A stretch of 64,000 bases of DNA from Candidatus Vogelbacteria bacterium (GCA_903864935.1 CAIPHT010000017.1:16096-80095), one strand, 5' to 3'. Counted from the first letter of the stretch, positions 24,777 to 43,171 are shown. The notes: a model not told the origin generated them from the letters alone. Program-made: numbers and translations.

Positions 24777-24778
24777 AA

Positions 24779-24799
24779 CTTAGAGGCTTCGCCTCTAAG
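24779..24799. repeat. REP-like palindrome, family 1, copy a: CTTAGAGGC-TTC-GCCTCTAAG
   Basis: Perfect 9-bp arms with a 3-nt loop, 2 nt after the stop of the 24399 gene. Confidence 0.9.
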
Positions 24800-24812
24800 T
24801 GAAGTTGTTTTT

Positions 24813-25193
24813 ATGAAAATCATAAAAGAAGGGAACGAGCTAGTTCTAAGGCTCCCCTTGTTACAAAAAGAGAATAATTTCTATAAAGGGGAGGAAGATT
24901 TAATTGATACCCAAAACTTAATTGGGGTTGTTTCCGGTAATGAATATACTATTTCTCAATTGAATGATCTTTCTTATAAAGGTGACCAACAAGAAGGTAT
25001 GCCGATTATCTATTTCTCAAGCAAAGAAGAACTAAAAGAAGCTTGTAAAACCTGTGGAATTGACATCTGGGAACACCCACTCTGTGCTTATTGTGGAAAA
25101 GTTATCAGAGGAAGCTCTACTTGGGCGAGCAAAGGTACCCAATGTTGGGATTGTTCTAATTTAGAGAACTTAGAGGCTTCGCCTCTAAGTTGA
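24813..25193 (+). CDS. hypothetical protein with a C-terminal Cys-rich zinc-ribbon-like segment; its stop codon is embedded in REP1 copy b
   Basis: 126 aa. C-terminus CKTCG..(11 aa)..CAYCGK..(12 aa)..CWDCSN. The last codons (LEASPLS) are encoded by the palindrome. Confidence 0.5.
   Translation: MKIIKEGNELVLRLPLLQKENNFYKGEEDLIDTQNLIGVVSGNEYTISQLNDLSYKGDQQEGMPIIYFSSKEELKEACKTCGIDIWEHPLCAYCGKVIRGSSTWASKGTQCWDCSNLENLEASPLS
25169..25189. repeat. REP-like palindrome, family 1, copy b (identical to copy a)
   Basis: cttagaggcttcgcctctaag. Overlaps the 3' end of the 24813 CDS and sits 24 nt upstream of the transposase ATG. Confidence 0.9.
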
Positions 25194-25212
25194 TAAGTAT
25201 AAACAAAAACAA

Positions 25213-25878
25213 ATGGCTCAAAGAAAAGTCGAGTTTGCAATTGGAGAGTACTATCATATCTACAATCGAGGGGTTGAGGGTCGGTGTATTTTTGCTGACC
25301 AGAAAGATCTGGCTCATTTTGCGCAAAGTGTCGAAGAGTTTAATGGAAACAATGTGGTCGGAGGCCTGTATATGGGCTCTTTTAAGAAACACAAAGAGAG
25401 GGGAGAGAAATTGGTAAATATAATTTGTTACGCTTTTAACCCTAATCATTACCACTTTTTAATGACCCCGTTGGTTGATAAAGGGATAGAAAATTTTATG
25501 CAAAGGCTTGGTACGGGTCACGCTATGTTTTTTAATAATCAACACAAAAGGAAGGGCCGATTGTTTCAAGGGGTTTTCAAATCTGTTCATGTTGGTTCAA
25601 ATAGACAGCTTTTGCATGCGAGTGTTTATGTTAATCTTAACGATAAAATCCACCAAATCGGAGGCGAAGCCTCTAAGTTGGTAAAGACAAGTTGGGGTAG
25701 TTATTCTTCGAATTCTTCAAAAAAGAGAGACTTTTTGCTTGGTGACACCAGTATTATTACCGATCAATTTAAAAATTTTCAAGAATATAAAAAATTTGCT
25801 GAAGAAATTTTGCCTGATATTATTGCCCGCAAAAAATCTCTAAAAGAGCTTGAAGAATTGATGTTGGATGAGAATTAA
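25213..25878 (+). CDS. HuH-family tyrosine transposase of the IS200/REP-associated (RAYT-like) type, copy 1
   Basis: N-terminal IGEYYHIYNRGVEGR. HuH motif NPNHYHFLM. RKGRLFQGVF. Tyr-containing segment ASVYVNLN, then WGSYSS. Paralogous to the 42223 gene. Flanked by family-1 palindromes, with a degenerate copy (GAGGCGAAGCCTCTAAG at 25662-25678) inside the CDS. Confidence 0.75.
   Translation: MAQRKVEFAIGEYYHIYNRGVEGRCIFADQKDLAHFAQSVEEFNGNNVVGGLYMGSFKKHKERGEKLVNIICYAFNPNHYHFLMTPLVDKGIENFMQRLGTGHAMFFNNQHKRKGRLFQGVFKSVHVGSNRQLLHASVYVNLNDKIHQIGGEASKLVKTSWGSYSSNSSKKRDFLLGDTSIITDQFKNFQEYKKFAEEILPDIIARKKSLKELEELMLDEN
25662..25678. repeat. degenerate REP1 copy (3' arm and loop only) inside the transposase CDS
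   Basis: ggaggcgaagcctctaag, encoding IGGEASKLV. Confidence 0.6.
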
Positions 25879-25882
25879 TCAC

Positions 25883-25903
25883 TTAGAGGCGAAGCCTCTA
25901 AGT
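25883..25903. repeat. REP-like palindrome, family 1, copy d: CTTAGAGGC-GAA-GCCTCTAAG, i.e. the opposite orientation
   Basis: Exact reverse complement of copies a and b, 5 nt after the transposase stop. Confidence 0.9.
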
Positions 25904-25937
25904 TGTAGAAATTTCCCCCTGACTTATCCACTTTTTT

Positions 25938-25962
25938 ATCGCTAAATATAGCGATTTTTTTG
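25938..25962 (+). terminator. hairpin ATCGCTA-aata-TAGCGAT plus T7; -10 box TATAAT at 25964-25969 directly after
   Basis: 7-bp stem then a U-tract. The giant-gene ATG is 14 nt after the -10, so that gene is probably leaderless or nearly so. Confidence 0.5.
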
Positions 25963-25982
25963 GTATAATATAAGCAAACTTT

Positions 25983-28900
25983 ATGTTTTCTGTTTGGCAA
26001 AATTTCGTGAGTAGAAAAGGCTTTTTTGGCGTTCTTTTTTTGATTGTTTTTTCTTTTATTTTGACGCCAACTTTTTCGGCTTTTGCCGTCACCGGTGTCC
26101 CGGCCACCATGAGCTATCAGGGTCGCTTGGCGAACTCAGCCGGTGATCTTGTTGGTGGTGCCGGTGCCATCTATTCTTTCAAATTTTCTCTCTGGGACAA
26201 TGCGACCGTTGGTGCGGGTTCGCAAGTTTGGCCAGCGGGCGCGCCCACCGCTGTCAATGCTACCGTCCGTCAAGGTCTCTTCAACGTCAACATTGGCGAC
26301 ACCGGGAGTGGTTATCCCGATGCTCTCAATTACGACTTCAGTCAGAACAACAAAATTTATTTGCAGGTTGAAGTCTCTTCCGACGGTCTTACTTACGAGA
26401 CTCTTGGTCCTCGTCAACCCATCACCAGTGCGCCCTTCGCTCAAGTCGCGGGTCAAGTCTCTGGCTCTGCTGTCTCCACTATGGGTGGTCTTGTCGTTAA
26501 CGGCGGGGTCACTAGCACCCACTCCACCACCACCGGCTCGGGCTACTTCGGCACCGCTTTAGGCCTCGCCGGTCAGTATATTAATTCTTGGTCTGACCTC
26601 GCCACTTATCTCCCCGTTGTTGTTGGTTGGAGCACCAGCTCTGATAGCACCAACTTCGCCACTCTCCTCGCTGGTACGACGACGGATGCTCTTGCTGAAG
26701 GTGTCAATCACAAGTATTACAGCAACGTCTACGTCGCTGATTATATTTCTTCCTCCTCCACCCTTGCCTCCTCGTTAAATTATTGGGCCAAGTCGGGGAG
26801 CGATCTTAGTTACACTGCGGGGAATGTTGGTGTCGGGATGAGCCCTGTCTACAAGCTTGATGTCAATGGCGCGATAAGGGCTAATGGTAGCAATATTATT
26901 GCTGGAGGCGGTTCGGTGTTTGGTTGGATTTTTGGTTCGAACGGTTTATCTAATGTTGACACTACCTTAAACACCTCGGCCGGTTACAATATTTTATTTA
27001 AAAATGGTACATCCGAGCAAATGAGAATCTCTTCAGGGGGTCTTGTTGGTATCGGCACCACCACCCCTACACAAAGACTCGACGTCCTCGGCAACATCCA
27101 AGTCAACGGCACCTCCTCCTACATGATCAATGGCGTCAACCTTGCTTTTGGTTCAACCACAAAACAAAATTATTTCTTCGGTGCGGCGGGCAATAGTAAT
27201 ATCACTGGGAGTTATAACACCGGTGTCGGCAAGGGCGCGCTCGTCACCACCACTTCGGGCGGTTACAATACGGCCGTTGGGCGTCAATCTCTCTACCTTA
27301 ATACTATCGGTTCATCAAACACGGCTTTGGGTAATAACGCTCTACAATCTGTCTCGGCAGGTGATGGCAATGTCGGCCTTGGTGCTGATGCTGGTCAATA
27401 CGAGCTCGGTTCTAACTCTTTCTACCTCAATAATATTGATCAGAACGATACCGCCGGCGACAAGGCCTACTCCTTATTGTATGGCAAATTCTCTGGTGTG
27501 GCCGGTTCGCTCACCAACCAATTCCTCACCGTCAACGGCAAACTTAATATCGGTACCACTACCATGGCCTCGACCTTCAACATTCAAGGTATCTCCGGTG
27601 TCTCGGCCTTAAATATTGCCTCATCAACTGGAGCTCCGATGTTCACGGTGGCAAGCAATGGCAACGTCGGTATCGGGACCAATGCGCCAGCGTATCCTTT
27701 GGACGTAAACGGGAATGCTAAAGTTAATGGAGTTTTGACCGTATTGAATGGCACTTCTTATGGTATTCTTGCGGGACTTTCAAAATTGAATTTGTATGAT
27801 AATGCCGGGAATGCCTCATATCAAAATAGTTATACTGGAGGTTGGGGTTTTGGAATTGGGAATATCTCGCCTACCTATACTTTAGACGTTAAAGGAAGTG
27901 GAGCTGCTGGTGGTATCTTTAATGTCGCTTCGTCGTCAGGAGTAAGTGCTTTGATGGTTTCGAATAATGGCAACGTCGGCATTGGCACAAACGCACCATC
28001 TACTGGGTTACATCTTTATGATAATACAAGCACTGCTAATAAAGCTCTTATGAGATTAGAGACTACGGCTGGAAGTGGTCAGAATGCTGGAATAAGAATG
28101 ATTGGCGGGGCTAGCAATGCAGATTGGATGATTGGTACTAATAGAGCCGATTTAGCTGGTGCAGGAGACAGCCTATTATTTTATAAAAGTTTAGGCACAG
28201 CCGGAACTAAAATGGTGATCCAAGATAACGGCAACGTCGGTATTGGCACCACTTCGCCCGCAACAGCCTTACATGTTTATGGCGCAACACCAGAGATTAG
28301 GTTAGATGCGAGTGGTAGCGTCAATGCTCAATATACTTTAAATCAAAACAATGTTAAATATGGTTTATTGGGTCTATCGCTAGCCACTGATCAGCTTGCT
28401 CTTGGGTCAGCTGTCGGTGACGTTGTCCTTAGAGCTAACGCTGGTCAGAAACTTATGTTAAGCGCCAACGGTTCAGGCGCAAGCTCGACCATGACTTTAT
28501 TGAATGGTCTTGTTGGGATTGGCACCACCACCCCAAGCTCCTTGCTTCATCTCTATGGCAGTAGCGCCAACCCTTTGATTCTTGAGAGAAATAGCAGCCT
28601 TGCTAATGTTGGAATTCAATTCAAAGATACTTCGGGCTCTTGGTATGCTGGTAAGGGTACTGGGACGGGGAATTTTGCTATTGGTACTGATGCTAATCTT
28701 GGGGCCAGCACAATTTTTAATATTCAATCGAATGGTAACGTTGGTATTGGGACTTCTTCACCAGCTAACCCTTTGACCGTTGCGGATAAAGCTCAGATCG
28801 GAACATCTATTACAAACACCTCTCAGTCCGCCTCACTTGTTGTCCAAGGCACGGCTTCAAGAGCAGCCATGTATATTCAGGGTGATGCTTCGCGTTCAGC

Positions 28901-31900
28901 TTCGACCGATTTGATTTATTCAGTCAATAGATATGGAGTCGCTGGCGGATTCCAAATGTTCGGTGATCACAGCATGCTTATCGGCAGTACCGGGAAAGAA
29001 TTTCAATATCAAGGTAGCACCGGCTATGTCGGTATCGGCACTACCTCACCATCACAGTTATTGACCGTTGGGAATAACAATCAATTTACCGTCACGTCTG
29101 GGGGAGCGGTTAGTGCCACGGGCGGATTCTCGACCAATGGCACTGTCAACGCTGGTTATTATCAACTTGGCGGTATCCAAGCCTTTGCTTACTCTGGGAC
29201 GCAGGTCCAAGTTTCGCCGGCCGCCTATTGGCAATCCCTCGGCTTATTTACCAATGGTTCAGAAAAAGTTTCTATTTTAAGTAATGGCAACGTCGGTATC
29301 GGTACCACTACCCCATGGGCCAAACTTTCTCTTCAGAATTCCTACGGCTCCACAGGGGCTTTGCTTGATATTGCCACTACCACCTCGTCGGCTTTTGCCA
29401 CTTCATCGGTCTTCTATGTGGGGTCCAATGGTTACGTCGCGGTGGGAACGAACAATCCAACCAATCTTTTTGAAGTTGATGTTGGTGGTGTTTATAAGGT
29501 AGCAGTAAATGCAGGAGGAACATTTGTTGCCAAGAATGACGTAATGACCAACCTGATTGGTGATCTTGGCTCAAAATATCAGAAGATAATGCTTGATCAA
29601 GCAAACGGTTTGAGATTCTTTGCTGGCTCTTCGGCTTCCAATGAGTATATGAGAATCAACCAATCTGGCCTCGTCGGCATCGGCACCACTTCACCAATGG
29701 CCACTCTGTCTGTCATGGGCACTTCAACCTTGCCGGGCGTTAATCCTTTTGTTGTCGCTTCTTCGTCTGGTGTTCAACTTTTAACCGTGTTGCCGAATGG
29801 TAATGTGGGGGTGGGGACAACAAATCCGAGTGCTAAATTAACAGCATTTTCCGATGCAACATCCGGCGCAATAGGAGACACTCTAAGAGTATTTTCTGGT
29901 CTAGGGTCTGTAGCATTAAAAATATATTCAACCACAAATGGTGACGGATTGATCATCAATCAGTATTATCAGGGTTCAGGGCAAAATTATATCAGAATGG
30001 CGGATATCGTGTCTAACTCAGGAGATACTTCAGAAGCACAAATTCGGTTTCTAACTAAGCCAAACTCAGCAAATCCTAGCGAAGCAATGCGAATTACTGG
30101 CAGTGGTTTTGTTGGTATCGGTACTACGAGCCCCGCTCTTAAATTGCATGTATTAGGCACTATTGGTCTGCCGGCTACTTCTGGTACGGCCCAGAATGGT
30201 GTCGCAAGATTCTCGGTTGACCCAGCCGGAACGGGTTATGTTTTGGATATGGGTGTTCTCTCCGGTGCCTCATGGTTGCAGACAACTATTGCCGGTGACC
30301 TAGGCACTTATGGTTCTTTGCTCTTGAACCCACGCGGGGGCAATATCGGTATTGGCACAGCTACTCCGGGTAAGACCTTAGATGTGAATGGTGATATCAG
30401 AATAGGGGTAAATAATAAACTTTATTTGGTCTCAACAAATGATAGTAATTATCTATCATATAATGAGTGGAACACTGCCTCCTCGATTGGTCTTAAGTTT
30501 TTAATTAGTGGCAACGAGAAGATGAGAATTGATGCTTCCGGCAACGTCGCCATTGGCACCTCAACCCCTTGGGCCAAGCTCGCCATTCAGAATTCCTACG
30601 GCTCCACTCAGGCCTTGTTTGATATAGCGACGACGACTTCATCAGCCTTCGCCACCTCGTCGGTCTTCTATGTTGGGGCGAATGGCAATGTGGGTATCGG
30701 CACGGCGAACCCTGCCAAGAGACTGTCAATAACGGATGCGAATACGGCCTTAAGCGCGTATGCTTTAAATATTAGTGCTTATAAGAGCTCTGGCAATTTC
30801 TCTGGACTCTCGTTTGGCGATGATAGTGGCGGAACTGTTTGGGGCGCAATTAAGTTCAAAGCCGATACCAATAACGACAGTTCTTTGAGATTCTTGACTT
30901 GGGACGGGACGACTGGCGGCACAGAGAGATTAACAATCAAGGGAGTTGGGGGCTCAGTTGGTATTGGTTCTACTTCTCCTATTTCTACCCTCTCTGTTAA
31001 AGGTGTTGCCGGCTATAATCCATTCACCATTTCTTCTTCCACGGATGCTTCGCTCCTCACTATCTTACAGAATGGCAACGTCGGTATTGGGACAAGTAGT
31101 CCGGCGACTTCTTTGGATGTTTATAGTAATACGACGGACAATATCTTCCGTTTGATGACGGGGCCCGCTATTGGGGTGATGCCCACCTTTACCATGTCAC
31201 AAGGGGGAACCAACAATTTTCAAATTGGCCGAGCGCTAACTCTTTTCAACCCTAACCTTGGGGGTATCGCCGCCGAGAATGATGTCGGTTTCTCTGCCCC
31301 GACCAACCGAAGCCTCTATTTTGGTACCGCCGCTAATCCTTACTTAGCAATAAGAAATGGTGGCAATGTGGGTATTGGCACGACGAGCCCCCCTGATTTA
31401 CTAACTGTTTACCATGATAGCTCCGCAGACACCGTCTTAAATATTTCTAATAATAGCCTCAGTGCAAGTTACGGGAGTTCGGTTTTGAAGTTCAGCCAAG
31501 GAAACGGTGAGGCAGCCTATATCTCTTGGAATCAGGCAAACCAGCTTTTTAAATTTGTAGCTGGACGAAATAATTTTAATAACTTCTCTTTCAATACTGT
31601 TACAGGAGGAGCTGAGGTCTCAAGATTATTTATACAAAATAATGGTAACGTTGGTATCGGCTCCACTTCACCAATGGCCACCTTGTCAGTAATGGGCACC
31701 TCGACCTTGCCGGGCGTTAATCCTTTTGTCGTCGCTTCTTCATCCGGTGCTCAACTTTTGACGGTGTTGCCAAATGGCAAAGTGGGCATAGGGACAACCG
31801 GACCTGTTACTAAGTTATCTTTATCGGATGCCACGTCCACTTTTCTAACTATTTCTAATACTAACAATGCTAGTGGTGTGGTCGGAGGAATGTTGTTCTC

Positions 31901-34900: not shown

Positions 34901-37900
34901 TGGAGGGTTTAGATTTGATGTGACTGGGTCTGGAAGTAGCTACAGATTAAATATCGGAGATGATAATGTTGCTAATAGTGGCGATACTAATGCTTGGATG
35001 ACCTTTACTAATCTCGGCCTCGTCGGCCTCGGCACCACCACCCCTAACGCCAACCTTAATATCTTCGGTACCACCAACACCTTCATGCGGGTAGCCTCTT
35101 CAACCAATCAGAATATCTTCGTCATTGATAATAATGGCGACGTCTCCATGTCTGGTGGCTTGGCTCTCACTGGTCTCACTGGCAACATCATCACCTCAAC
35201 CAATGTTAAGCAAGCCATCCAAGACTTAGACACCAGCCTATATAATCAACAGAACAATACTAAGGAGATCACTGGTTTCCCTAACCGCACCGACACGAGC
35301 ATTGCCTTCACTAGCGGCACCCGCACCTTCACCATCACCGGCACCAACTTCAAGCTCTACTCAGTCGGCAAAGAATATACCAAGAATACCGAATCCATTG
35401 GTCTCCCTAACACTGTCGGCCTCTACTATATATACTACGACAAGACCAGCCACAACTTAGCCACCAGCACCACCGCTTGGGGTCTCACCGATGGCACCAT
35501 CCAAGTCGCCACGGTCTATTGGGATGGCACCACTGGCGTGTTGGGCGAAGAGCGTCACGGGGTCACCATGGATGGCGCCACTCATGAGTATCTCCACCAT
35601 ACTGTCGGTACCAGATACCAGTCTGGCTTAGCTGGTACCTTCAATTCCGACAGAACCTTCTCCATCACCGCTGGCGCGGTGGATGACGAAGATATCGAAG
35701 AGACAATCCCACTCACCACGACTGGTCGTATTCTCTACCACAATGGTCCAACCAACTTCACTTATACTTCGGCCACCTCCAGCTTCTTCGATGAGACTTG
35801 TACGGGCGGAGTTGTCTGTTACGACAATGCGGGCACCAAGGCGGCCGTCACAAACAACAACTATGTCGCCTATTGGATCTTCGCCACCAATGACCCGACC
35901 ACCCCAATCTACTCAATGATGGGTCAACGCCAAGACACCAGCCTCGCTAATGCTCAAGCTAATCAGACCTATGGCAGCCTCACACTTGGGACCCTCCCAT
36001 TTGCTGAGATGAAGTTACTCTATCGTGTCATTGTCAGGAACAACGCCGGCAGTACCTTGTCCGTCGATGACTATCGCTCCGTCTCTAACCTCCCATCGGG
36101 CACCTACCTCGCTACTTTGCACAGCAGTTTGACTGGTCTTACTAATGACGACCACACTCAATACGCTTTGCTCGCTGGTCGCGCTGGTGGTCAGAGTTTA
36201 ATTGGTGGCAATACCGCCGGAGACAATCTCACCTTGTTTGGCAACTCCATTGACTACGGCAATATCTTCACTCAACCTTATGGGGGGAGCTTAACGGTGG
36301 GCACCACTTCTACTATCACCCTCGCCAACACCTTATTCAATGTGGCTTCGTCTACTGGTGCCAATTACTTAACGGTGTTGAAGAATGGGAATGTTGGGAT
36401 TGGGACGAGTAGTCCAAGCACAAATTTTTACGTACAGGGCAATTCGGAGGTTACGGGGTATCTTATTGCTGGAGGGGCTTATTCCAACGCCGATACAGTT
36501 AGAATTTCTCTTGATGAATATACTGACCGAAGTAGAATTGCGACAGCTGGATATACCAACAAATATTATGCGGGAAGGGCGACCGGAGTAAATGGCGAAC
36601 ACCGTTTCTATGTTGGAGCCAATGGCTCATGGAATGAAGCACTAAGTATTCTATCTTCTGGTTCCATCGGTATTGGCACTACCACCCCTCTCGCCAAGCT
36701 TGATCTCACTGGGACCCTTGGGTCACTGGCCGATATCTTCAACGTCTCCACGAGCACGGGGGCCAACTTAGTCTCAAGTCTCTTCCGCATTACGGCCAAC
36801 GGCGATGTGTCTATTGGCGGAGCTAATCTTGGTAATTACAGCACCACCACCATCAATAATGACTTAGTGGTTGGTGGTGGCGCTCTCACTTACTCTTCAT
36901 CCACTGGCATTGTCTCAATTGATAATGTGGAGTTGGGAGCCACCTCCTTCCCAACTGATGCCGGGATGGTTAGCTGGATGGATATGCCTCTCACCTCAGG
37001 TACGGCTGCCGGTGTCGGTGTGGCTTATACTGCCAACCTCGCGGGCAACCCTATCCTTTCCATCGCTGGTATCTCTGATGGTAATGGCGACCTCTCGAGC
37101 TTTGGTGTTGGTATTGGTACCACCAGTGTGCCTGCCTTCCTTACAATCCAAAATGCTTCGACCACCAGCAATATGCCTCTGCTGCTTTTTGCTTCGTCTT
37201 CTGGATCTTCAATCCTCTCTATTTCTAATAATGGCAATATCGGGATTGGGACGAGTACCTCAGGTGGGACACTCCACGTAATTAATCCTACTGGTATAAC
37301 CTCAGCTAAGTTCCAGGCTGGCACTGGTAACACAATCACTAATTCTTTGTTAGAAATCTTACCTAATAGTGGGCTTAGTAAAATTTATTTCTCCTCTGAC
37401 AATAATGGGCAAAGAATGGTTTATCTTGATACGACGGGTTCACCAAGAATGAATATCGATAACTCGTCTATTGTCCAAGGTTCTAATCGTTTAATCAATT
37501 GGACATCTGGCGACATGAACGCCTCCGCTGATATTGGTCTTTCTCGCGGGGCCGCTGGTAAATTATATGTCGGCAATGGGGCAACCTATGACTATACCGG
37601 AGGATTAATCGCTGGGTCTGTGGGCATTGGCTCCAGCACTCCCGTGGCCAAGCTTTCCATCCATGATAATTCGGGACTCGCGGCATCTAATCCACTCTTC
37701 ACCATTGCTTCATCGAGCGCCGCGGGCACGGGCACTACCACTTTGTTGACGATACTCGGGAATGGCAACTTGGGCATTGGCACCGCTTCGCCGAATTCTC
37801 CACTTCAAATTTCTAACACTACCGCTACTACCAAATTTATTCGAGTGGGGACCAACTCCAATCCTTCCACCACAGCCAATGCTGGCGGTATAGTCGTGGA

Positions 37901-39824
37901 TGTTAACGGTGGTGGTGGGGTCTATATGGGAGACTCAGCCAACGGTCTTTATGGTAAGTATGAGGCCTATGGTGGGAAGATAGGTATCGGCTCAATGTCC
38001 AATCATCCTGTTGGTTTGTTTACAAATAGTGTTGAGCGATTAAGTATCACCAACGGTGGTTTGGTTGGCATTGGCACCACGACACCATCGGCGAAGTTCT
38101 CTATTCAGAATGCCTTCGGCGCGACTGGGGCTCTGTTTGATATTGCCACCACCACTTCTTCAGCTTTTGCTACCTCGTCACTCTTCACCGTGTTGGCCAA
38201 TGGTAATGTGGGTATCGGGACGAATAATCCGACATTGATATCTGGAGGAAGTGGTTTACATATTAAAAATAGTAACGGTGAAGGGAATCTTAGATTGGAT
38301 AGCACAGTTGGTAATAATCAACAGGTATTTGAATTAAGGACCGAAGGAACAGTGACAGGTTTTGAATTATACGATATTACTAATGGAAAAAGTAAAATAT
38401 GGGTTAAACCGAATAATGGTGACATAATGCTGATGAACAGCAACGTTGGCATTGGCACCACTTCACCAATTGCTAAATTATCAGTGATTGGAAATACTTA
38501 TCTAGGAGGCAATCTTACCGCCACAGGCACTCTTGATGTTGCCGGTACCACAACGATACCTTTTGGTTCCAAGATTGGCGACGTTGCGGGTAGTAATTAT
38601 GTGACCGTTGAGAATAGGCCATTCGATGGGACCTATGCCAGTGGCAGTATCCCTTTGATTAAATTCAACTCCCTGTTCCCTGGTGACTCATCGGTGGGTG
38701 GGATTGATAGGAGTTTGATAATTACGGCTAGTGGTGGTGTCTCGCCTTCACTTCAATTTGCCGCTGAAGATTTTGCCGATACCGCAAATGTCGGAAAAAT
38801 TATTTATGATACCCATAATAATAGAATGGTTGTTAGTGATATTACTGGTACGGGCGCTGTTAATTCAGTTGATTTGTTCATCCCTAATGGTAATGTGACA
38901 ATTAACGGGCTTAATAGTAACGGCGCCGTCTATTCGAATGGCGGTTTGCTCACCAACACCAATCCATCCTCTCGTGATTACAAGAAGAATATTATTGACA
39001 CTAATCTTAATCTTGACGCTCTACTCGGCTTGCAAGTTAAATCATTTGTTTGGAAGAATAATGGCCAGAGTGATTTTGGTCTGATTGCCGAGGAGGTTAA
39101 GAGTGCTTTGCCTGAGCTCTATGTGGATGATGGCAAGACCAAGGGTTATCGCGCCGACCACTTACCATTCTACTTATTGCAGATTGCTCAGCGCCAAGAA
39201 GGGGAGATTAATAGTTTGAACGAGCAAATCACCTCATTGCTCGGCGCCAGCACTAGCTCACCAATTACTCTCACCGAGGGTGGTCTGATTGATCCAAGTT
39301 TACTCGCCGTCTCTAGCTCAAGCCTCGCGGTGGCGACAACAACAGCCGAGACTTCTACTTCTACCGCTTTCTCAATTATCTCTGATCGGCTGCTTACGGG
39401 TGTCGGTACTGTCAAAGAGCTTGTCTCTGAGCGCATGGTGGCGATGGTGGGCCTCTTCGATTATATCAAGGCTAAGGTGGTCGAGACGGATACGCTTAAG
39501 GTCCAGAAGGGGATGGAGATTAAAGATTCGGCCACTGGCGATATCTACTGTGTCTTGATCGTGAATGGCGAATGGCAGAAGACGAAGGGCAAATGCTCGG
39601 ATGTCCCTGTTGCGCCTACCACGCCAAGCACGCCTACTTCTCCCGCTCCCGCTGACTCTTCTTCTGGCTCTTCCACCCCTTCGACTTCCGGTGATACTAG
39701 CACCAGCACACCTAGCTCTGATACTCCGGTAATTACCACTGATTCTTCTGTCCCTCCTGCCCCAACCGAACCAGCCCCAACTCCTGATCCTGTCCCAGCT
39801 CCAGCCCTCGAACCAGCTCCCTAA
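25983..39824 (+). CDS. Giant secreted fibre protein (4613 aa) with about 44 NGNVGIGTTxP-x3-L repeats, a tail-fibre-like central region, a C-terminal intramolecular chaperone (peptidase S74 / endosialidase-chaperone type) domain and a Pro/Thr/Ser-rich tail.
   Basis: N-terminal hydrophobic anchor (GFFGVLFLIVFSFILTPTFSAFA). The motif recurs every 60-130 aa. The C-terminal segment NTNPSSRDYKKNI..LDALLGLQVKSFVWKNNGQSDFGLIAEEVKSALPELYVDDGKTKGYRADHLPFYLLQIAQRQEGEINSLNEQI matches the S74 autoproteolytic chaperone pattern (SDRRLKENI..VSY.WK.....GFIAQEV..V.PE...). Confidence 0.85.
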   Translation: MFSVWQNFVSRKGFFGVLFLIVFSFILTPTFSAFAVTGVPATMSYQGRLANSAGDLVGGAGAIYSFKFSLWDNATVGAGSQVWPAGAPTAVNATVRQGLFNVNIGDTGSGYPDALNYDFSQNNKIYLQVEVSSDGLTYETLGPRQPITSAPFAQVAGQVSGSAVSTMGGLVVNGGVTSTHSTTTGSGYFGTALGLAGQYINSWSDLATYLPVVVGWSTSSDSTNFATLLAGTTTDALAEGVNHKYYSNVYVADYISSSSTLASSLNYWAKSGSDLSYTAGNVGVGMSPVYKLDVNGAIRANGSNIIAGGGSVFGWIFGSNGLSNVDTTLNTSAGYNILFKNGTSEQMRISSGGLVGIGTTTPTQRLDVLGNIQVNGTSSYMINGVNLAFGSTTKQNYFFGAAGNSNITGSYNTGVGKGALVTTTSGGYNTAVGRQSLYLNTIGSSNTALGNNALQSVSAGDGNVGLGADAGQYELGSNSFYLNNIDQNDTAGDKAYSLLYGKFSGVAGSLTNQFLTVNGKLNIGTTTMASTFNIQGISGVSALNIASSTGAPMFTVASNGNVGIGTNAPAYPLDVNGNAKVNGVLTVLNGTSYGILAGLSKLNLYDNAGNASYQNSYTGGWGFGIGNISPTYTLDVKGSGAAGGIFNVASSSGVSALMVSNNGNVGIGTNAPSTGLHLYDNTSTANKALMRLETTAGSGQNAGIRMIGGASNADWMIGTNRADLAGAGDSLLFYKSLGTAGTKMVIQDNGNVGIGTTSPATALHVYGATPEIRLDASGSVNAQYTLNQNNVKYGLLGLSLATDQLALGSAVGDVVLRANAGQKLMLSANGSGASSTMTLLNGLVGIGTTTPSSLLHLYGSSANPLILERNSSLANVGIQFKDTSGSWYAGKGTGTGNFAIGTDANLGASTIFNIQSNGNVGIGTSSPANPLTVADKAQIGTSITNTSQSASLVVQGTASRAAMYIQGDASRSASTDLIYSVNRYGVAGGFQMFGDHSMLIGSTGKEFQYQGSTGYVGIGTTSPSQLLTVGNNNQFTVTSGGAVSATGGFSTNGTVNAGYYQLGGIQAFAYSGTQVQVSPAAYWQSLGLFTNGSEKVSILSNGNVGIGTTTPWAKLSLQNSYGSTGALLDIATTTSSAFATSSVFYVGSNGYVAVGTNNPTNLFEVDVGGVYKVAVNAGGTFVAKNDVMTNLIGDLGSKYQKIMLDQANGLRFFAGSSASNEYMRINQSGLVGIGTTSPMATLSVMGTSTLPGVNPFVVASSSGVQLLTVLPNGNVGVGTTNPSAKLTAFSDATSGAIGDTLRVFSGLGSVALKIYSTTNGDGLIINQYYQGSGQNYIRMADIVSNSGDTSEAQIRFLTKPNSANPSEAMRITGSGFVGIGTTSPALKLHVLGTIGLPATSGTAQNGVARFSVDPAGTGYVLDMGVLSGASWLQTTIAGDLGTYGSLLLNPRGGNIGIGTATPGKTLDVNGDIRIGVNNKLYLVSTNDSNYLSYNEWNTASSIGLKFLISGNEKMRIDASGNVAIGTSTPWAKLAIQNSYGSTQALFDIATTTSSAFATSSVFYVGANGNVGIGTANPAKRLSITDANTALSAYALNISAYKSSGNFSGLSFGDDSGGTVWGAIKFKADTNNDSSLRFLTWDGTTGGTERLTIKGVGGSVGIGSTSPISTLSVKGVAGYNPFTISSSTDASLLTILQNGNVGIGTSSPATSLDVYSNTTDNIFRLMTGPAIGVMPTFTMSQGGTNNFQIGRALTLFNPNLGGIAAENDVGFSAPTNRSLYFGTAANPYLAIRNGGNVGIGTTSPPDLLTVYHDSSADTVLNISNNSLSASYGSSVLKFSQGNGEAAYISWNQANQLFKFVAGRNNFNNFSFNTVTGGAEVSRLFIQNNGNVGIGSTSPMATLSVMGTSTLPGVNPFVVASSSGAQLLTVLPNGKVGIGTTGPVTKLSLSDATSTFLTISNTNNASGVVGGMLFSSQYESTYRKGAISFVRTESNANRGYLSFALDASNTASNVDSDIIGNTKMVIDYTGSVGIGTTAPGAKLDIVGVNNQLRITNADGTNYYSIGRSNSNGYLEFSLTGANSYGYTFNGGLVGIGTTSPMATLSVMGTSTLPGVNPFVVASSSGAQLLTVLPSGNVGIGISNPAQLLDVEGRIRANTLEFGANNSYLGYLDQGGLVFNSSGVGTIYNAYSGSNLFLSSNGGNVILGMRDDGLASYNGKVGIGTSTPFAKLAIQNSFGSTQALFDIATTTSSAFATSSVFYVGANGNVGVGTNLPTNKFTVSGTVDPVRFHSTGQNVLEISSTGNSENGVRFTRSGDASYWTLGMDNNSTNDFYLGSSGFGTKYLTVLQTNGNVGIGTTTPISTLSVSGTAGINPFTIASSTGQTMLTMLQNGNVGIGTANPISPLTISKNSATTATWLNLDNTDVGGAGVMLDFTQGGGMMGRINSYYAGNGLWNLGLGTNANSGLPVLFVTNGRVGVASTTPQSTFAVSGIAGTNPFTIASSTGQTMLTMLQNGNVGIGTAAPSYPLDVVANSSGSNLNLINNPSNLSGIRFGVNGTPASSYTTIFADGRSTGYLYIKTNDIERFRIDSNGNVGIGTTTPSDILSIQGNSSILGNTPSVGLNNTDSGGRLWSIYSSGNSNSIGGGKFSIFDKTASLNRLVIDSSGNVGIGTSSPQSILHLYGATVKPRLERSVSSGAAVLDFWPSGTLSQANSVWSFGMVENNSNFSVNQWTGSQTLQRLLVDTNGNVGIGTTSPAATLDIEINNTSGASTIPVFRVGNLAGTPAYFGITLGGSASGWENIAQLQLNGTKYISLDGGQSTVDLHKNMLLDNNVSFQASSNGFNNFVPYNTAFSNGFSFDTGSIFSFQTNGSPVMTILNNGNVGIGSTTPLSTLSVSGTAGTNPFTVASSTGNAMLTMLQNGNVGIGTANPGNKLHIVGGGLSLGDSVSALTTRGLFNIHDSSNARMSITKASVGGFRFDVTGSGSSYRLNIGDDNVANSGDTNAWMTFTNLGLVGLGTTTPNANLNIFGTTNTFMRVASSTNQNIFVIDNNGDVSMSGGLALTGLTGNIITSTNVKQAIQDLDTSLYNQQNNTKEITGFPNRTDTSIAFTSGTRTFTITGTNFKLYSVGKEYTKNTESIGLPNTVGLYYIYYDKTSHNLATSTTAWGLTDGTIQVATVYWDGTTGVLGEERHGVTMDGATHEYLHHTVGTRYQSGLAGTFNSDRTFSITAGAVDDEDIEETIPLTTTGRILYHNGPTNFTYTSATSSFFDETCTGGVVCYDNAGTKAAVTNNNYVAYWIFATNDPTTPIYSMMGQRQDTSLANAQANQTYGSLTLGTLPFAEMKLLYRVIVRNNAGSTLSVDDYRSVSNLPSGTYLATLHSSLTGLTNDDHTQYALLAGRAGGQSLIGGNTAGDNLTLFGNSIDYGNIFTQPYGGSLTVGTTSTITLANTLFNVASSTGANYLTVLKNGNVGIGTSSPSTNFYVQGNSEVTGYLIAGGAYSNADTVRISLDEYTDRSRIATAGYTNKYYAGRATGVNGEHRFYVGANGSWNEALSILSSGSIGIGTTTPLAKLDLTGTLGSLADIFNVSTSTGANLVSSLFRITANGDVSIGGANLGNYSTTTINNDLVVGGGALTYSSSTGIVSIDNVELGATSFPTDAGMVSWMDMPLTSGTAAGVGVAYTANLAGNPILSIAGISDGNGDLSSFGVGIGTTSVPAFLTIQNASTTSNMPLLLFASSSGSSILSISNNGNIGIGTSTSGGTLHVINPTGITSAKFQAGTGNTITNSLLEILPNSGLSKIYFSSDNNGQRMVYLDTTGSPRMNIDNSSIVQGSNRLINWTSGDMNASADIGLSRGAAGKLYVGNGATYDYTGGLIAGSVGIGSSTPVAKLSIHDNSGLAASNPLFTIASSSAAGTGTTTLLTILGNGNLGIGTASPNSPLQISNTTATTKFIRVGTNSNPSTTANAGGIVVDVNGGGGVYMGDSANGLYGKYEAYGGKIGIGSMSNHPVGLFTNSVERLSITNGGLVGIGTTTPSAKFSIQNAFGATGALFDIATTTSSAFATSSLFTVLANGNVGIGTNNPTLISGGSGLHIKNSNGEGNLRLDSTVGNNQQVFELRTEGTVTGFELYDITNGKSKIWVKPNNGDIMLMNSNVGIGTTSPIAKLSVIGNTYLGGNLTATGTLDVAGTTTIPFGSKIGDVAGSNYVTVENRPFDGTYASGSIPLIKFNSLFPGDSSVGGIDRSLIITASGGVSPSLQFAAEDFADTANVGKIIYDTHNNRMVVSDITGTGAVNSVDLFIPNGNVTINGLNSNGAVYSNGGLLTNTNPSSRDYKKNIIDTNLNLDALLGLQVKSFVWKNNGQSDFGLIAEEVKSALPELYVDDGKTKGYRADHLPFYLLQIAQRQEGEINSLNEQITSLLGASTSSPITLTEGGLIDPSLLAVSSSSLAVATTTAETSTSTAFSIISDRLLTGVGTVKELVSERMVAMVGLFDYIKAKVVETDTLKVQKGMEIKDSATGDIYCVLIVNGEWQKTKGKCSDVPVAPTTPSTPTSPAPADSSSGSSTPSTSGDTSTSTPSSDTPVITTDSSVPPAPTEPAPTPDPVPAPALEPAP

Positions 39825-39829
39825 TTTGT

Positions 39830-39842
39830 CTAGGCCTTGCCT
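39830..39842. repeat. 13-nt remnant of the REP family-2 palindrome (CTAGGCCTTGCCT) between the giant gene stop and the LamG gene
   Basis: Exact match to the core of the 42886 copy. The chance of this at this length in 64 kb is negligible. Confidence 0.6.
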
Positions 39843-39869
39843 GGACAAAACCAAGTGCTTAAAATATTT

Positions 39870-42077
39870 ATGAATAAAATTTTATTTTTTATAATCTCTA
39901 TTAGTTTAGGCTTGACCTTTTCTCTTCCCGCCTTTTCTCTGGCCGCACAAATTGATTCCGCCCCCACTCGTGGCCTTGTTGGCTACTGGTCTTTCGACGA
40001 AGGGACCTCTACTATTGCCCATGATTATTCAGGGAATAAAAATAATGGGACTTTGGTGGGAACTCCTAAACCTAGTTGGGTTGCTGGTAAAAATGGTAAA
40101 GCTTTAATTTTGAATGATGCGACGCAATATGTTGATGCGGGGACAGGTAATACGGGTGTTTATAATCCGGGTCAAACCTTTACTTTGTCTGTTTGGGTAT
40201 TACCAACTGCAACCGGTAAAGCTAGTGGAGCTGATATAATTCAAAAACAAACAGGCTCTGCTTCACCGTATGCGAGTTGGTCACTTGATTTTAGTAATAA
40301 TCAGGAATTTGGGCTTGGCTTAGGTGGGACAAATAATACATTTTATGATTTCAGGGCAAAAACGCCAGCCGTTGCACTTAATCAGTGGTACCATGTTGTG
40401 GCAACTTATGATGGCACGACGATAAAAACATATTTAAATGGGGCCCTGTCTAATTCCGAAGTTTTCCCACTGACTATTAAATACACCAGTGACAAACTTG
40501 TTTTTGGATCATGGTCTTATGGTCAGGCAACTAATTTATTTGTCGGTAAAATAGATGAAGCTCGCATCTACAACCGTGCCCTAACAGCCGGCGAAATTTC
40601 TGCCCTTTATCAAACCAGCGCCACCAAGATTAATCCAGCACCGCCGATCAATAAAGCTGGTCTTAATGCTGGACTCATTGCTTATTGGACGATGGATACT
40701 CAAGATATTAATTGGACGACGAGCCGGATGATTGATAAGTCGGGGAGTGGTAACACGGGCACACTTGGAGCCTTTACTAGTACGGCCTCGGCTCTGGGTA
40801 AATTGGGACAGACGCTCAAGTTCAATGGTACGAGCAATTATCTGGTCAATAGTCAGGTGGTTAATATCACCAAGTCCACCGTCTCGGCGTGGGTCAATTT
40901 GCCGAGCTACCCCACGAGCGGGAGCTTGGGCATGCTCGCTGGTTTTGCTCAAGGTAATAATTCTGATACTCACGACAAGGACCTCTTCATCGATGGGAGT
41001 GGTAAGGCCTATTATTACACTTACACTGGCCAACTCAAGTGCACCACTGAGCCGACCAATGCCATTCCGCGCAATTCTTGGCACTTGGTCACCGGCACTA
41101 ACGATGGTGTTAACAATTATCTTTATATTGATGGACAGCTGGCCGGTTCGGTCTCCGCCGGTAATTCGTATGCTGGCTATGGTTCGGCCAACCTGCTTGT
41201 TGGGGGCAAAGTTAATTATTCCGGCTCGGTTGGTTGTGGTACCGGCAACACCACGCGCACCTATCTCCCGGCGAATACCAAGATTGATGATGTGCGCATC
41301 TACAACCGCGCGCTCTCAGCGAGTGAAGTTAAAACTTTATATAATCAGAGCCAGGGGACAAAAGTGAATGCTCCTCCGACTCTCAAACCTCTTGGTCTCG
41401 ACTCCGGCCTTGTCGGTTATTGGACAATGAACAATCAAGACATTAATTGGAAGACGATGACGATGGTAGACAAATCCGGCAAAGGCAACACTGGCACGCT
41501 CACCAACATGCCTACCTCCACTTCCCCCGTCGCCGGCAAAATTGGTCAGGCGTTGAAGTTTAATGGGAGTAGTTACGTTGATACTAATAGTGCAAGTCTT
41601 GGTCTAACAAATAGTAGTGATCTGACCGTCTCTGTTTGGTTTAAAAGAGCCGATTCGGATGTCGGCCAGCATCATTTGGTTAGTGATTATAATAAAAATA
41701 CGCCAACGGGTTGGATGTTTATGTTCGAATCTAACTACTTATGGATAAAAAATTATCAAACGAGCGCAGTGAACGCAAGAATGTCTGCATCCGTCTCAAC
41801 CATTATTGATACGAAGTGGCATCACGCAGTCGGGATAATAAAAGGAGATGGAACAGATACAAAATTATATATAGACGGCATCCTCCAAGGGAGCAGTTTT
41901 TTTGGTGGTGCGGGAGGCATTGTGACTCAATTGAACATGGGAAGCGGGAATGTAACTATCGGGAGACAGTCCTTGCCTTCTGAAAGATTTTTCAATGGCT
42001 CTATCGACGACACCCGCATCTATAATCGCACCCTTACCCCCGCCGAAGTCCTCCAACTCTACCGCCAAGGAAAATAA
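39870..42077 (+). CDS. secreted protein with three tandem LamG / ConA-like lectin-glucanase domains
   Basis: Signal peptide MNKILFFIISISLGLTFSLPAFSLA. Three repeats each start (L)VGYW(S/T)(F/M)D and end D(E/D)xRIYNR(A/T)L(T/S)..E(I/V)..LY, the hallmark of the LamG_3 / ConA-like superfamily. The ATG at 39870 is chosen over the upstream TTG. Confidence 0.75.
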   Translation: MNKILFFIISISLGLTFSLPAFSLAAQIDSAPTRGLVGYWSFDEGTSTIAHDYSGNKNNGTLVGTPKPSWVAGKNGKALILNDATQYVDAGTGNTGVYNPGQTFTLSVWVLPTATGKASGADIIQKQTGSASPYASWSLDFSNNQEFGLGLGGTNNTFYDFRAKTPAVALNQWYHVVATYDGTTIKTYLNGALSNSEVFPLTIKYTSDKLVFGSWSYGQATNLFVGKIDEARIYNRALTAGEISALYQTSATKINPAPPINKAGLNAGLIAYWTMDTQDINWTTSRMIDKSGSGNTGTLGAFTSTASALGKLGQTLKFNGTSNYLVNSQVVNITKSTVSAWVNLPSYPTSGSLGMLAGFAQGNNSDTHDKDLFIDGSGKAYYYTYTGQLKCTTEPTNAIPRNSWHLVTGTNDGVNNYLYIDGQLAGSVSAGNSYAGYGSANLLVGGKVNYSGSVGCGTGNTTRTYLPANTKIDDVRIYNRALSASEVKTLYNQSQGTKVNAPPTLKPLGLDSGLVGYWTMNNQDINWKTMTMVDKSGKGNTGTLTNMPTSTSPVAGKIGQALKFNGSSYVDTNSASLGLTNSSDLTVSVWFKRADSDVGQHHLVSDYNKNTPTGWMFMFESNYLWIKNYQTSAVNARMSASVSTIIDTKWHHAVGIIKGDGTDTKLYIDGILQGSSFFGGAGGIVTQLNMGSGNVTIGRQSLPSERFFNGSIDDTRIYNRTLTPAEVLQLYRQGK

Positions 42078-42096
42078 TTACCGCCAAGGCAAAAAT
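42059..42096. repeat. 19-bp tandem direct duplication (ctaccgccaaggaaaataa / ttaccgccaaggcaaaaat) spanning the LamG gene stop codon
   Basis: 17 of 19 positions identical, immediately adjacent. Confidence 0.7.
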
Positions 42097-42120
42097 TTCA
42101 CCGAGGTAGTTTTTTGCCCA

Positions 42121-42149
42121 ATCACCGCTAGGCATTGCCTAGCGGTGAT
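42121..42149. repeat. REP-like palindrome, family 2, copy a: core CCGCTAGGC-ATT-GCCTAGCGG, extended to 14-bp arms (ATCACCGCTAGGCA/TGCCTAGCGGTGAT)
   Basis: Perfect inverted repeat read directly. Confidence 0.9.
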
Positions 42150-42195
42150 TATACGTTGCAAACAAAGGCTAAATTTATCCACATTTTTCCATTTT

Positions 42196-42216
42196 CCGCT
42201 AGGCATTGCCTAGCGG
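42196..42216. repeat. REP-like palindrome, family 2, copy b, followed by TATAAT and the transposase ATG
   Basis: ccgctaggcattgcctagcgg, then tataat (42217-42222), then ATG at 42223. Confidence 0.9.
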
Positions 42217-42222
42217 TATAAT

Positions 42223-42903
42223 ATGTTTATGTCGGAAAGGAAATTTATTTTTTCGATCGGTGAATTTTATCACATCTATAATCGTGGAGTAGAGAAGCGC
42301 GTTATCTTTAACACGGTCGCAGACAAATATCGTTTCTTGAAGTTGCTTTATTTGTGTAATGGAGGAGAGCCTTTTAAGTTCGATGAACTAAAGAGAGGTG
42401 AGGAATATCTATTCAGACGGGGCGAACCGATTGTTGATATATGCGCCTATTGTTTAATGGACAATCACTATCATCTTATCCTGAGAGAAATTAAGGAGGG
42501 CGGGATCAGTATTTTTATGCACCGGCTTGGGACTTCTTACTCAGCCTATTTTAATAAATTGAATGAACGCAAAGGGTCATTATTCCAAGATAAATTTGGG
42601 GCCAGACATTTTGATAGTGATGAATATTTGAAATATGGGATTGCTTATAATCATCTTAATCCGGTGAAAATGGTTGAGCCCAAGTGGAAGGAGGAGGGCA
42701 TTAAAGATATGGATAAGGTAAAAAAATTTATCGAGAAATATCGCTTTTCTAGTTATCTTGATTATAAGGGCCAAAAACGGAACGAAAATCGCATTTTGAA
42801 TATGGATTCTTTGCCCGAGTATTTTGATAATGCCAAGGAGTTTGACGATTACTTAACTGATTGGCTAGGTTATCATGCGGAAGAACCGCTAGGCCTTGCC
42901 TAG
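42223..42903 (+). CDS. HuH-family tyrosine transposase of the IS200/REP-associated (RAYT-like) type, copy 2
   Basis: IGEFYHIYNRGVEKR. HuH motif MDNHYHLIL. RKGSLFQDKF. YGIAYNHLNPVK, comparable to the Y..NPVK motif of REP-associated Y1 transposases. FSSY. The stop codon TAG lies inside REP2 copy c. Confidence 0.8.
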   Translation: MFMSERKFIFSIGEFYHIYNRGVEKRVIFNTVADKYRFLKLLYLCNGGEPFKFDELKRGEEYLFRRGEPIVDICAYCLMDNHYHLILREIKEGGISIFMHRLGTSYSAYFNKLNERKGSLFQDKFGARHFDSDEYLKYGIAYNHLNPVKMVEPKWKEEGIKDMDKVKKFIEKYRFSSYLDYKGQKRNENRILNMDSLPEYFDNAKEFDDYLTDWLGYHAEEPLGLA

Positions 42904-42906
42904 CGG
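42886..42906. repeat. REP-like palindrome, family 2, copy c (loop variant CTT), overlapping the transposase stop
   Basis: ccgctaggccttgcctagcgg. Confidence 0.9.
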
Positions 42907-42957
42907 TAATTTAATGTCGATAAATAAGGCTTAAATAGCCACTGCTTTTGGAGTTTT

Positions 42958-42984
42958 CCCTAGGCATTGCCTAGCGGTTTTTTT
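42958..42984 (+). terminator. REP family 2, copy d (5' arm degenerate: CCCTAGGCATTGCCTAGCGG) plus T7; acts structurally as a hairpin and U-tract terminator
   Basis: Hairpin followed by ttttttt. Confidence 0.6.
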
Positions 42985-43040
42985 GCTTGAGAGACGAATT
43001 ATGTTAGGATATATGAGACCATATGTCAGAAATGGTATAT

Positions 43041-43114
43041 GGGCCTATAGTTCAATGGTAGAACAATGGTCTCCAAAACCATCGATCGAGGTTCGAGTCC
43101 TCGTGGGCCCGCCA
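43041..43114 (+). tRNA. tRNA-Trp (anticodon CCA), CCA end encoded
   Basis: GGGCCTA-TA-GTTC-AATGGTA-GAAC-A-ATGGT-CTCCAAA-ACCAT-CGAT-CGAGG-TTCGAGT-CCTCG-TGGGCCC-G-CCA. Cloverleaf folded by hand. Confidence 0.85.
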
Positions 43115-43171
43115 GAAACAGGATTTAAGAAGGTTTGCTTATTTTTTGCCATCGTTTATAATAGGCTTAAT

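Follow-up and report, generated by a model that had tools for sequence, protein, structure and literature searches.

Two genes for homologues of REP-associated tyrosine transposases (RAYTs), each accompanied by its own family of hairpins of the repetitive extragenic palindrome (REP) type, lie on either side of a giant fibre gene and a LamG-domain gene in a 64-kb stretch of DNA from Candidatus Vogelbacteria, a lineage of the Candidate Phyla Radiation (CPR). This whole stretch is hereafter called the window, and all within-genome repeat counts cover these 64 kb. We consider it probable, at roughly 0.7, that the two units are independent REPtrons (RAYT genes flanked by REP hairpins), one in each of the two intergenic regions that border a native, conserved fibre gene, and that the bracketing is incidental. 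The RAYT units belong to different subfamilies and carry different hairpins; therefore, they are not the two ends of one element. The components listed in the initial annotation of the stretch (RAYT genes, REPs, fibre and LamG genes, duplication, terminator sites and tRNA-Trp) are present where it placed them, and the RAYT-like genes do lie in the same orientation around the fibre-LamG block. The locus is organized as follows.

24775-24800, + strand: REP1 copy a; 10-bp stem, loop TTC; left end of a 26-nt direct repeat
24801-25190, + strand: 390-bp module holding open reading frame (ORF) 24813-25193 and REP1 copy b; presence varies by strain
25165-25190, + strand: REP1 copy b, inside the 390-bp module
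25213-25878, + strand: RAYT-1; 221 aa, HUH/Y1 transposase homologue
25657-25677, + strand: REP1-derived sequence in frame within RAYT-1, encoding IGGEASK(L)
25881-25903, + strand: REP1 copy c; loop GAA, orientation opposite to that of copies a and b
25938-25962, + strand: terminator-like hairpin and T-run, ATCGCTA-AATA-TAGCGAT (the hairpin itself at 25938-25955)
25983-39824, + strand: giant fibre gene; 4613 aa, C-terminal Peptidase_S74 chaperone domain
39825-39849, + strand: REP2-type hairpin variant right after the fibre stop codon; 11-bp stem including one T-G pair, TTTGTCTAGGC-CTT-GCCTGGACAAA
39870-42077, + strand: LamG gene; 735 aa from ATG, three Laminin_G_3 domains, secreted protein
42060-42097, + strand: 19-bp tandem duplication spanning the LamG stop codon
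42120-42150, + strand: REP2 copy 1; 14-bp stem, AATCACCGCTAGGC-ATT-GCCTAGCGGTGATT
42196-42216, + strand: REP2 copy 2; 9-bp stem, followed by TATAAT and the RAYT-2 start codon
42223-42903, + strand: RAYT-2; 226 aa, HUH/Y1 homologue of a subfamily other than that of RAYT-1
42885-42907, + strand: REP2 copy 3; loop CTT, encoding the final PLGLA and the TAG stop of RAYT-2
42956-42984, + strand: REP2 copy 4; imperfect stem followed by T7, terminator-like
43041-43114, + strand: tRNA-Trp, within a segment of about 150 bp (42985-43134)

The fibre gene is native and positionally conserved. In a MiaA-based scan of species-representative genomes, the window fell within Paceibacterota/Candidatus Vogelbacteria. 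Paceibacteria contigs were compared at this locus, with L008 as the closest relative and L005 and L006 as more distant ones. L008, whose core proteins are 80-94% identical to those of the window, is collinear with it around the locus, and the window-only stretches (24344-25958 and 39603-43134) contain the RAYT units. Its gene order is a cohesin-domain gene, 85 bp, a conserved promoter, an S74 fibre of 2299 aa, a hairpin, tRNA-Trp, a small ORF and miaA; neither RAYT-1, RAYT-2, LamG nor the two small genes 5' of RAYT-1 were found at this locus. The fibre-gene promoter region, directly 3' of the terminator-like hairpin at 25938-25962, is kept in L008. In L005, the S74 fibre gene ends directly beside tRNA-Trp, and in L006 a fibre-like giant ORF (no Pfam domain) does the same, both without hairpin, RAYT or LamG. 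These results contradict the proposal of the initial annotation that RAYTs or hairpins delivered the fibre-LamG block: the fibre lies at the same site in L008 without RAYTs or LamG, and the fibre or fibre-like genes of L005 and L006 adjoin tRNA-Trp without them as well. A conserved position in relatives lacking the RAYT genes had been named beforehand as evidence contrary to delivery, and this is the position that was found.

Composition points in the same direction. The fibre (GC 0.471) and LamG (0.455) genes are core-like, also in GC content at third codon positions and in codon usage, and the RAYT modules are the atypical parts: RAYT-1 (0.366), RAYT-2 (0.377) and ORF 24813 (0.373) are AT-rich, as are both small genes beside RAYT-1, and codon usage is atypical in these small genes and in both RAYT genes. 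The fibre protein consists in part of dozens of NGNVGIGT(T/S)SP-type repeats. The closest LamG homologues (51-52% identical) are encoded beside or near S74 fibres of 3845 aa and 4304 aa with no Y1 transposase listed; therefore, fibre and LamG genes associate on their own. A second giant ORF (15-12128), which is cut off by the window start and exceeds 4037 aa, has repeated hairpin-forming segments, GGTACCGA...TCGGTACC, at 888 and 5067, so that two giant surface-type genes occur within 26 kb of the window.

The two RAYT proteins are 37% identical over 165 residues, which, together with their different hairpins, also speaks against delivery by a single element. RAYT-1 scores 22.4 bits against Pfam Y1_Tnp (PF01797), below the cut-off of 23 bits, and 16.5 bits against the NCBIfam RAYT model (NF047646; cut-off 80 bits); RAYT-2 reaches 26.0 bits, above the Pfam cut-off, and 32.9 bits against the NCBIfam model. 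In an alignment of 20 sequences covering both subfamilies, the HUH motif of RAYT-1 (H79-Y-H81) and its catalytic Tyr139 align with positions at which H79, H81 and Y139 are invariant, and the motifs read NHYHF/NHYHL and Y(V/N)xLN. The AlphaFold2 model of RAYT-1 (pLDDT 85.3) has an extra C-terminal helical region; its best Foldseek match in the PDB is 4ER8, the Escherichia coli RAYT in complex with a REP hairpin (E 1.8e-5, TM score 0.63 on the target), followed by the TnpA proteins of IS608 and ISDra2. A PDB sequence-profile search with the RAYTs gave no match, an exact look-up of the RAYT-2 protein returned no record, and the exact RAYT-1 protein was found in assemblies at this locus only. No TnpB-like ORF adjoins either RAYT gene of the window.

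Each RAYT gene is flanked by one palindrome family. The REP1 palindrome is CTTAGAGGC-TTC-GCCTCTAAG, and its pattern CTTAGAGGCTTCGCCTCTAAG matches at 24779 and 25169 (loop TTC) and at 25882 (loop GAA, i.e., inverted); with the partial copy inside RAYT-1 (25657-25677), this gives seven strand-matches in the window versus 0.01 expected by chance. RAYT-1 thus stands between inverted REP1 copies, TTC on the left and GAA on the right. The foot of the hairpin reads AGAA/ATCA, with no GTAG or CGTC tetranucleotide. The initial annotation started the locus at 25169; a REP1 copy does lie there, and a further one lies upstream at 24779, outside that boundary. The final residues of ORF 24813-25193 (NLEASPLS; 126 aa, Cys-rich C-terminus, no Pfam or NCBIfam match) come from REP1.

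The REP2 palindrome is CCGCTAGGC-ATT-GCCTAGCGG, of the general form CGCTAGGC-ATT/CTT-GCCTAGCG. The pattern CGCTAGGCATTGCCTAGCG matches at 42126, 42197, 42887 and 42958 (0.01 expected), and the loop reads NTT on the + strand in four of the four copies, both in the window and in L026, a contig whose RAYT-2 orthologue is 89% identical and adjoins tRNA-Trp and miaA as in the window. Around the homologues in L054, L065 and L092, loop orientation is inverted. The bases before CCGC are CA, TT or AA, again with no GTAG or CGTC tag. The overlap of a REP2 copy with the RAYT-2 stop codon is also found in L026, L065, L067, L092 and L094, and the succession of REP2 copy 2, TATAAT and the RAYT-2 start recurs in L026. 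What had been described as a REP2 core remnant between the fibre and LamG genes is only partly so: the 13-mer CTAGGCCTTGCCT is exact at 39830-39842, and it belongs to a complete hairpin (39825-39849) rather than a fragment. This hairpin is predicted at -8.7 kcal/mol (z -5.3), and its outer stem is unlike REP2 yet still pairs. With one mismatch allowed, the 13-mer occurs elsewhere only in the four REP2 copies (5 found versus 0.06 expected). Besides the hairpin at 39.8 kb, no REP1 or REP2 copy was found elsewhere in the window, and no additional REP copies were found within 10 kb of the RAYT gene in L087, L090, L092 and L094. No Rfam family matched the hairpins of the window. A phage origin of REP1 and REP2 was considered and rejected, as viral contigs contained no exact match to REP1, the REP1 variant or the REP2 pattern.

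The hexamer TTGCCT of the REP2 core resembles a -35 element; at 39837 it lies 17 nt 5' of TAAAAT, ahead of LamG (39837-39865). The TATAAT right behind REP2 copy 2 stands seven bases 5' of the RAYT-2 start (42196-42223), and likewise in L026. This spacing hints that REP2-type hairpins may overlap promoters. It is also plausible, judging from sequence, that the REP copies followed by T-runs (42958 here, and the post-fibre hairpin of L008) could serve as terminators or define mRNA ends.

Both RAYT families are large and almost confined to CPR/Patescibacteria, with at least 2720 (RAYT-1) and at least 1132 (RAYT-2) clusters, which are called 'transposase' or 'RayT' where the source names them. The nearest RAYT-1 homologues (77% identical; L087, L090) occupy one housekeeping site, S1-RAYT-MBL-GyrA (S1, S1-domain gene; MBL, metallo-beta-lactamase), in two genomes, and a 56% identical homologue from Woesebacteria (L097) lies between ychF and leuS. 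Members of the RAYT-2 family with 56-64% identity are found as UvrD-RAYT-KsgA in three genomes (L027, L092/L093, L094). In a survey of 10 homologous loci, with 5 kb around each, no ORF above about 1150 aa was found at any locus (0/10). RAYT homologues therefore show no general link to giant adhesin genes, and the specific REP/RAYT-adhesin association suggested in the initial annotation is not borne out. The idea that REPtrons generally adjoin RNA genes was likewise rejected, since Rfam detects no RNA next to the L087 and L090 homologues of RAYT-1.

The homologues share the REPtron organization. Those of L027, L054, L065, L087, L090, L092, L094 and L097 are flanked on both sides by their own palindromes, the right-hand one often overlapping the stop codon. 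The palindromes include ACCTAAACC-A-GGTTTAGGT, CCCCGAGAC-TTC/GAA-GTCTCGGGG and CAACGAGGCT-A-AGCCTCGTTG; the REP1 type is represented by CTTAGAGGC or CTTGGAGGT. At conserved RAYT sites, the hairpin pair varies between genomes and is identical on both sides within a genome.

The RAYT-1 subfamily also carries a REP within its coding sequence. The internal REP1-derived sequence is located just past the catalytic-tyrosine helix, where the motif HQL(G/R)GE(A/T)S(K/Q)L is conserved across the subfamily. Complete internal hairpins occur at the equivalent position in L087, L090 and L097; stem lengths are 13 bp (L087) and 17 bp (L097), and in the window the stem has decayed to only 5 bp. A recent insertion was considered for the internal piece and rejected, because motif and complete hairpin are conserved down to 53-56% identity. 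Within each genome, internal and flanking copies have a common stem variant and loop; between genomes, two stem positions switch on both sides, from A-T to G-C and from C-G to T-A. In this small sample of related sequences, 94.8% of cells are paired, and 15 double-sided changes were counted versus 6.5 +/- 2.6 after shuffling. In the Woesebacteria contig L097 (GCA_000998905.1), a further REP1-type hairpin lies in frame in ychF (4811-4837), about 1.1 kb 5' of the RAYT-1-type REPtron; it has a 12-bp stem, CAACTTGGAGGT-TTC-ACCTCCAAGTTG, and encodes QLGGFTSKL.

REP2-type hairpins are also dispersed away from RAYT genes. In an exact scan of Joint Genome Institute (JGI) metagenome contigs, the REP2 core was found on 58 stretches, 54 of which have no RAYT within the stretch; a RAYT-2 homologue is adjacent in only four. 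On low-GC contigs, 51 occurrences share the wider consensus yCTCCGCTAGGC-CTT-GCCTAGCGGAGr at positions left free by the pattern; these non-random flanks argue that the 51 occurrences are one family. For contigs L029-L086, the hairpin consensus is CTCCGCTAGGC-CTT-GCCTAGCGGAG. About a third of these copies are found where genes end, and their stems, often extended by A/T, resemble bidirectional terminators. In 18 long ORFs, the hairpin is in frame and encodes SARQGLA or ARPCLAE; the hosts include RNase HI, LigA, UvrB, UvrC, Mur-ligase-like, MurB-like and DapF-like proteins (for example, L072 4615-4633, L085 2436-2454, L059 1055-1073 and L032 1365-1383), on low-GC contigs that are apparently of CPR type. 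In alignments with the solved proteins, a gap of 7 residues in RNase HI and one of 16 residues in UvrB coincide with the insert, and orthologous genes carry it at the matching site, with the loop sometimes flipped (L045 and L068 versus L047).

Other in-frame repeats accompany these hairpins. The UvrC gene of L059 (979-2400) contains, besides its SARQGLA insert, two distant copies of a 24-residue segment, NPSQPPLVRGGGIQSHPDKGDLGG, which suggests a second, longer in-frame repeat element. In the window, miaA (43432-44394, - strand) contains a long hairpin at 43792-43843 (13-bp perfect core, arms of about 21 bp, -17.7 kcal/mol) encoding ELRSPTSREPEVGLRN; most MiaA proteins of Paceibacteria lack this lineage-specific insertion. 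Variants of it occupy the site in L008 and L026, and L005 has a different insert there that includes the REP1-type hairpin CTTGGAGGCGAAACCTCCAAG.

The hairpins of the window are boundaries of small structural changes and probably hot spots for them. Among the strain-level contigs compared with the window (L001, L002 and L003), the 390-bp module is present in L001 and L002. L003, from another sample, lacks 24801-25190 but otherwise does not differ from the window; it joins window 24380-24800 straight to 25165-26020, with a single 26-nt REP1 at the junction. The LamG gene, absent in L008, L005 and L006, lies between the hairpin at 39825-39849 on its left and REP2 copy 1 on its right. Besides the 19-bp duplication at the LamG stop codon, half a REP2 is duplicated in L026 (20 bp). 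Finally, compared with L008 and L026, the tRNA-Trp segment of about 150 bp (42985-43134) is inverted, and one of the breakpoints coincides with a REP2 hairpin foot. The outgroups L005, L006, L009 and L045 share the orientation of the window; an inversion specific to the window lineage was therefore rejected, and either L008 and L026 were flipped or the segment was flipped more than once. In a three-way comparison of the window, L026 and L008, the latter is the longest branch. The view that hairpins shaped the locus is thus supported in part, by the 390-bp indel of L003, by LamG between REP2-type hairpins and by the tRNA-Trp inversion; delivery of the fibre gene is not supported.

Similar features occur elsewhere in the window. 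A third palindrome family, REP3, (AA)ATGTCCAACAT-CCG-ATGTTGGACAT(TT), has copies in equal orientation at 17198-17226 and 18734-18758; between them lie two genes for secreted proteins (17249-17566 and 17582-18646), the second of which is GC-rich (0.577) and codon-atypical, and the pair may be another hairpin-bounded module. The REP3 core GTCCAAC/GTTGGAC recurs in the internal hairpin of miaA. Near tRNA-Tyr (16862-16945, - strand), a partial duplicate of its 5' part (34 nt; 16984-17040) is split by a 22-nt insert with the GC-rich hairpin CCCCGCC-ACG-GCGGGG. At 53574-54966, about 1.4 kb of the window has no counterpart in the otherwise collinear L008; this segment includes an ORF (53740-54357) and a hairpin with a 9-bp stem (54430-54454).

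By analogy with RAYT and IS200/IS605 enzymes, each RAYT would bind its own hairpin in single-stranded DNA and cut at its foot. Such cutting would keep the hairpin copies alike and might occasionally seed new ones. The copies do bound small changes, namely those affecting the 390-bp module, LamG, the short duplications by REP2 and the tRNA-Trp segment, which may be caused either by RAYT catalysis or by ordinary repeat recombination or replication slippage.

Several observations weigh against two independent REPtrons beside a native fibre gene. The left junction was seen in one relative only (L008). Both RAYTs occupy sites unlike those of their nearest homologues, and two such relocations at a distance of 17 kb may not be due to chance alone. 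The hairpins that bound LamG leave room for a hairpin-dependent delivery of this gene. L026 has RAYT-2 like the window, but it has the tRNA-Trp inversion and the hairpin flank of L008; so either the presence of RAYT-2 or the inversion changed more than once. L008 may accordingly have lost RAYT-2 instead of never having had it.

A broader proposal, which we regard as unlikely, is that CPR bacteria harbor a divergent RAYT/REP system in which the in-frame self-hairpin, possibly an autoregulatory or self-targeting site, co-evolves with the flanking copies, hairpin pairs act as HUH ends that move whole genes, and hairpins spread into essential genes. If this were true, surface-protein genes like that for LamG, and small ORFs, would behave as hairpin-bounded cassettes. 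The corresponding account of the locus, in which a RAYT excises and re-inserts the gene between two cognate hairpins on one strand, as the IS608 TnpA does, is distinctly doubtful. Candidate cassettes would be LamG, ORF 24813 and possibly the two genes between REP3 copies at 17.2-18.8 kb. L003 has precisely lost one REP1 and the 364 bp between the copies, leaving one hairpin, but a 26-nt direct repeat suffices for RecA-independent deletion or slippage, and this loss needs no enzyme. LamG lies between REP2-type hairpins and is missing from all three relatives compared at the locus; however, its composition is host-like and its left hairpin has only the 13-nt core in common with REP2. A GC-rich, atypical gene stands between identical REP3 hairpins, a non-RAYT gene in L082 is flanked by inverted REP2-type hairpins, and the RAYT fold matches that of enzymes performing exactly such excision with hairpin ends. 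Nevertheless, no second location was found for any of the candidate cassettes, and REPs are commonly located at gene ends as terminators, which alone brackets genes.

An improbable alternative is that both RAYT units are ancestral here and were deleted in the relatives, the window being the original state. L008 does carry, where the REP2 copies lie in the window, a post-fibre hairpin with a REP2-like stem, CCGCTAGGT-ATT-ACCTAGCGG, a T-rich tail and a compensatory pair change, which could be a solo REP; L026 has RAYT-2 at the tRNA-Trp site in a second lineage, and a REP-to-REP deletion is seen in L003. However, hairpin, RAYT and LamG are all lacking from the more distant L005 and L006, which have the ancestral tRNA orientation; the RAYT modules have an atypical composition, and the closest RAYT homologues reside at other conserved sites.

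A composite mobile unit with the two RAYTs and REPs as its ends, although suggested by the same-orientation RAYT genes on each side of the block and by their sites unlike those of the nearest homologues, is effectively excluded by synteny (in L008, the fibre is in place between the cohesin gene and tRNA-Trp without either RAYT, and L005 and L006 agree), by RAYT identity (37%, with unrelated hairpins) and by composition (native cargo, atypical RAYT modules).

Two independent REPtrons beside a native fibre gene thus remain the favored explanation, and the symmetry of transposase-like genes around the 16-kb adhesin block does not define a mobile unit. Where CPR genomes show comparable arrangements, cargo delivery should be concluded only if synteny supports it. 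REP/RAYT biology, described mainly in Proteobacteria so far, extends in divergent form to reduced CPR genomes, where the hairpins mark strain-level gene gain or loss beside surface-protein genes, which probably serve host contact, lie in frame in genes for repair and cell-wall enzymes, and also occur within the transposase gene. They offer a testable handle on surface-locus variation in small genomes, and the co-varying enzyme-hairpin pairs are material for studies of HUH specificity. Literature searches found no open-access paper on RAYT or REP in CPR/Patescibacteria.

Several known systems resemble parts of this locus. Integron cassettes with attC sites, by analogy only, are single genes between hairpins that can fold as single strands and are possible recombination sites; unlike them, the window has no integrase, attI or cassette array, and the enzyme is of the HUH type and not a tyrosine recombinase. 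Composite transposons likewise have two transposase-family genes in the same orientation around a large segment, but here the flanking units come from two different elements, and the native segment keeps its place without them and was not seen to be present or absent as a unit. Like Rickettsia palindromic elements, short palindromes lie in frame and add a few loop residues, here in RNase HI, UvrB, UvrC, LigA, a Mur ligase-like protein, YchF and MiaA. In contrast to those elements, the inserts are 21-30 nt (7-8 residues), much shorter than RPE-1, have an identical nucleotide core across very divergent host genes, and are associated with RAYT-like genes.

The IS200/IS605 family (IS608, ISDra2) has in common with the window units the Y1 HUH fold and hairpins at both gene ends, and probably the mechanism. 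The window units differ in having the same palindrome at both ends instead of distinct left and right imperfect hairpins, in the absence of tnpB and of any sign of multiple identical copies, and in orthologues kept at conserved sites across genomes.

The closest parallel is with REPtrons, that is, RAYT/TnpA_REP genes flanked by REP/REPIN hairpins, reportedly described by Nunvar in 2010, Bertels and Rainey in 2011 and Ton-Hoang in 2012. This organization is documented in later work (Di Nocera 2013, PMC3733652; Bertels 2017, PMC5581495), and in other phyla intragenic REPs are enriched in replication and repair genes, REP ends provide TAG stops and REPs lie at gene 3' ends (PMC3733652). The window shares the fold match to the E. 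coli RAYT-REP complex, genes flanked by their own short GC-rich palindromes, a REP-derived TAG stop, REPs at gene 3' ends and in frame within replication and repair genes, and RAYT homologues kept at conserved chromosomal sites, as domesticated genes are. It differs in that the RAYTs score far below the curated model, are longer (about 220 aa) and have an extra C-terminal helical region; in the missing GTAG/CGTC tag; in that no copies were seen away from the RAYT genes within the 64 kb, apart from the hairpin at 39.8 kb; and in the CPR host. Moreover, genes of the RAYT-1 subfamily hold an in-frame copy of their own REP that co-varies with the flanking ones. Intragenic REPs and REP-derived stops are already known elsewhere.

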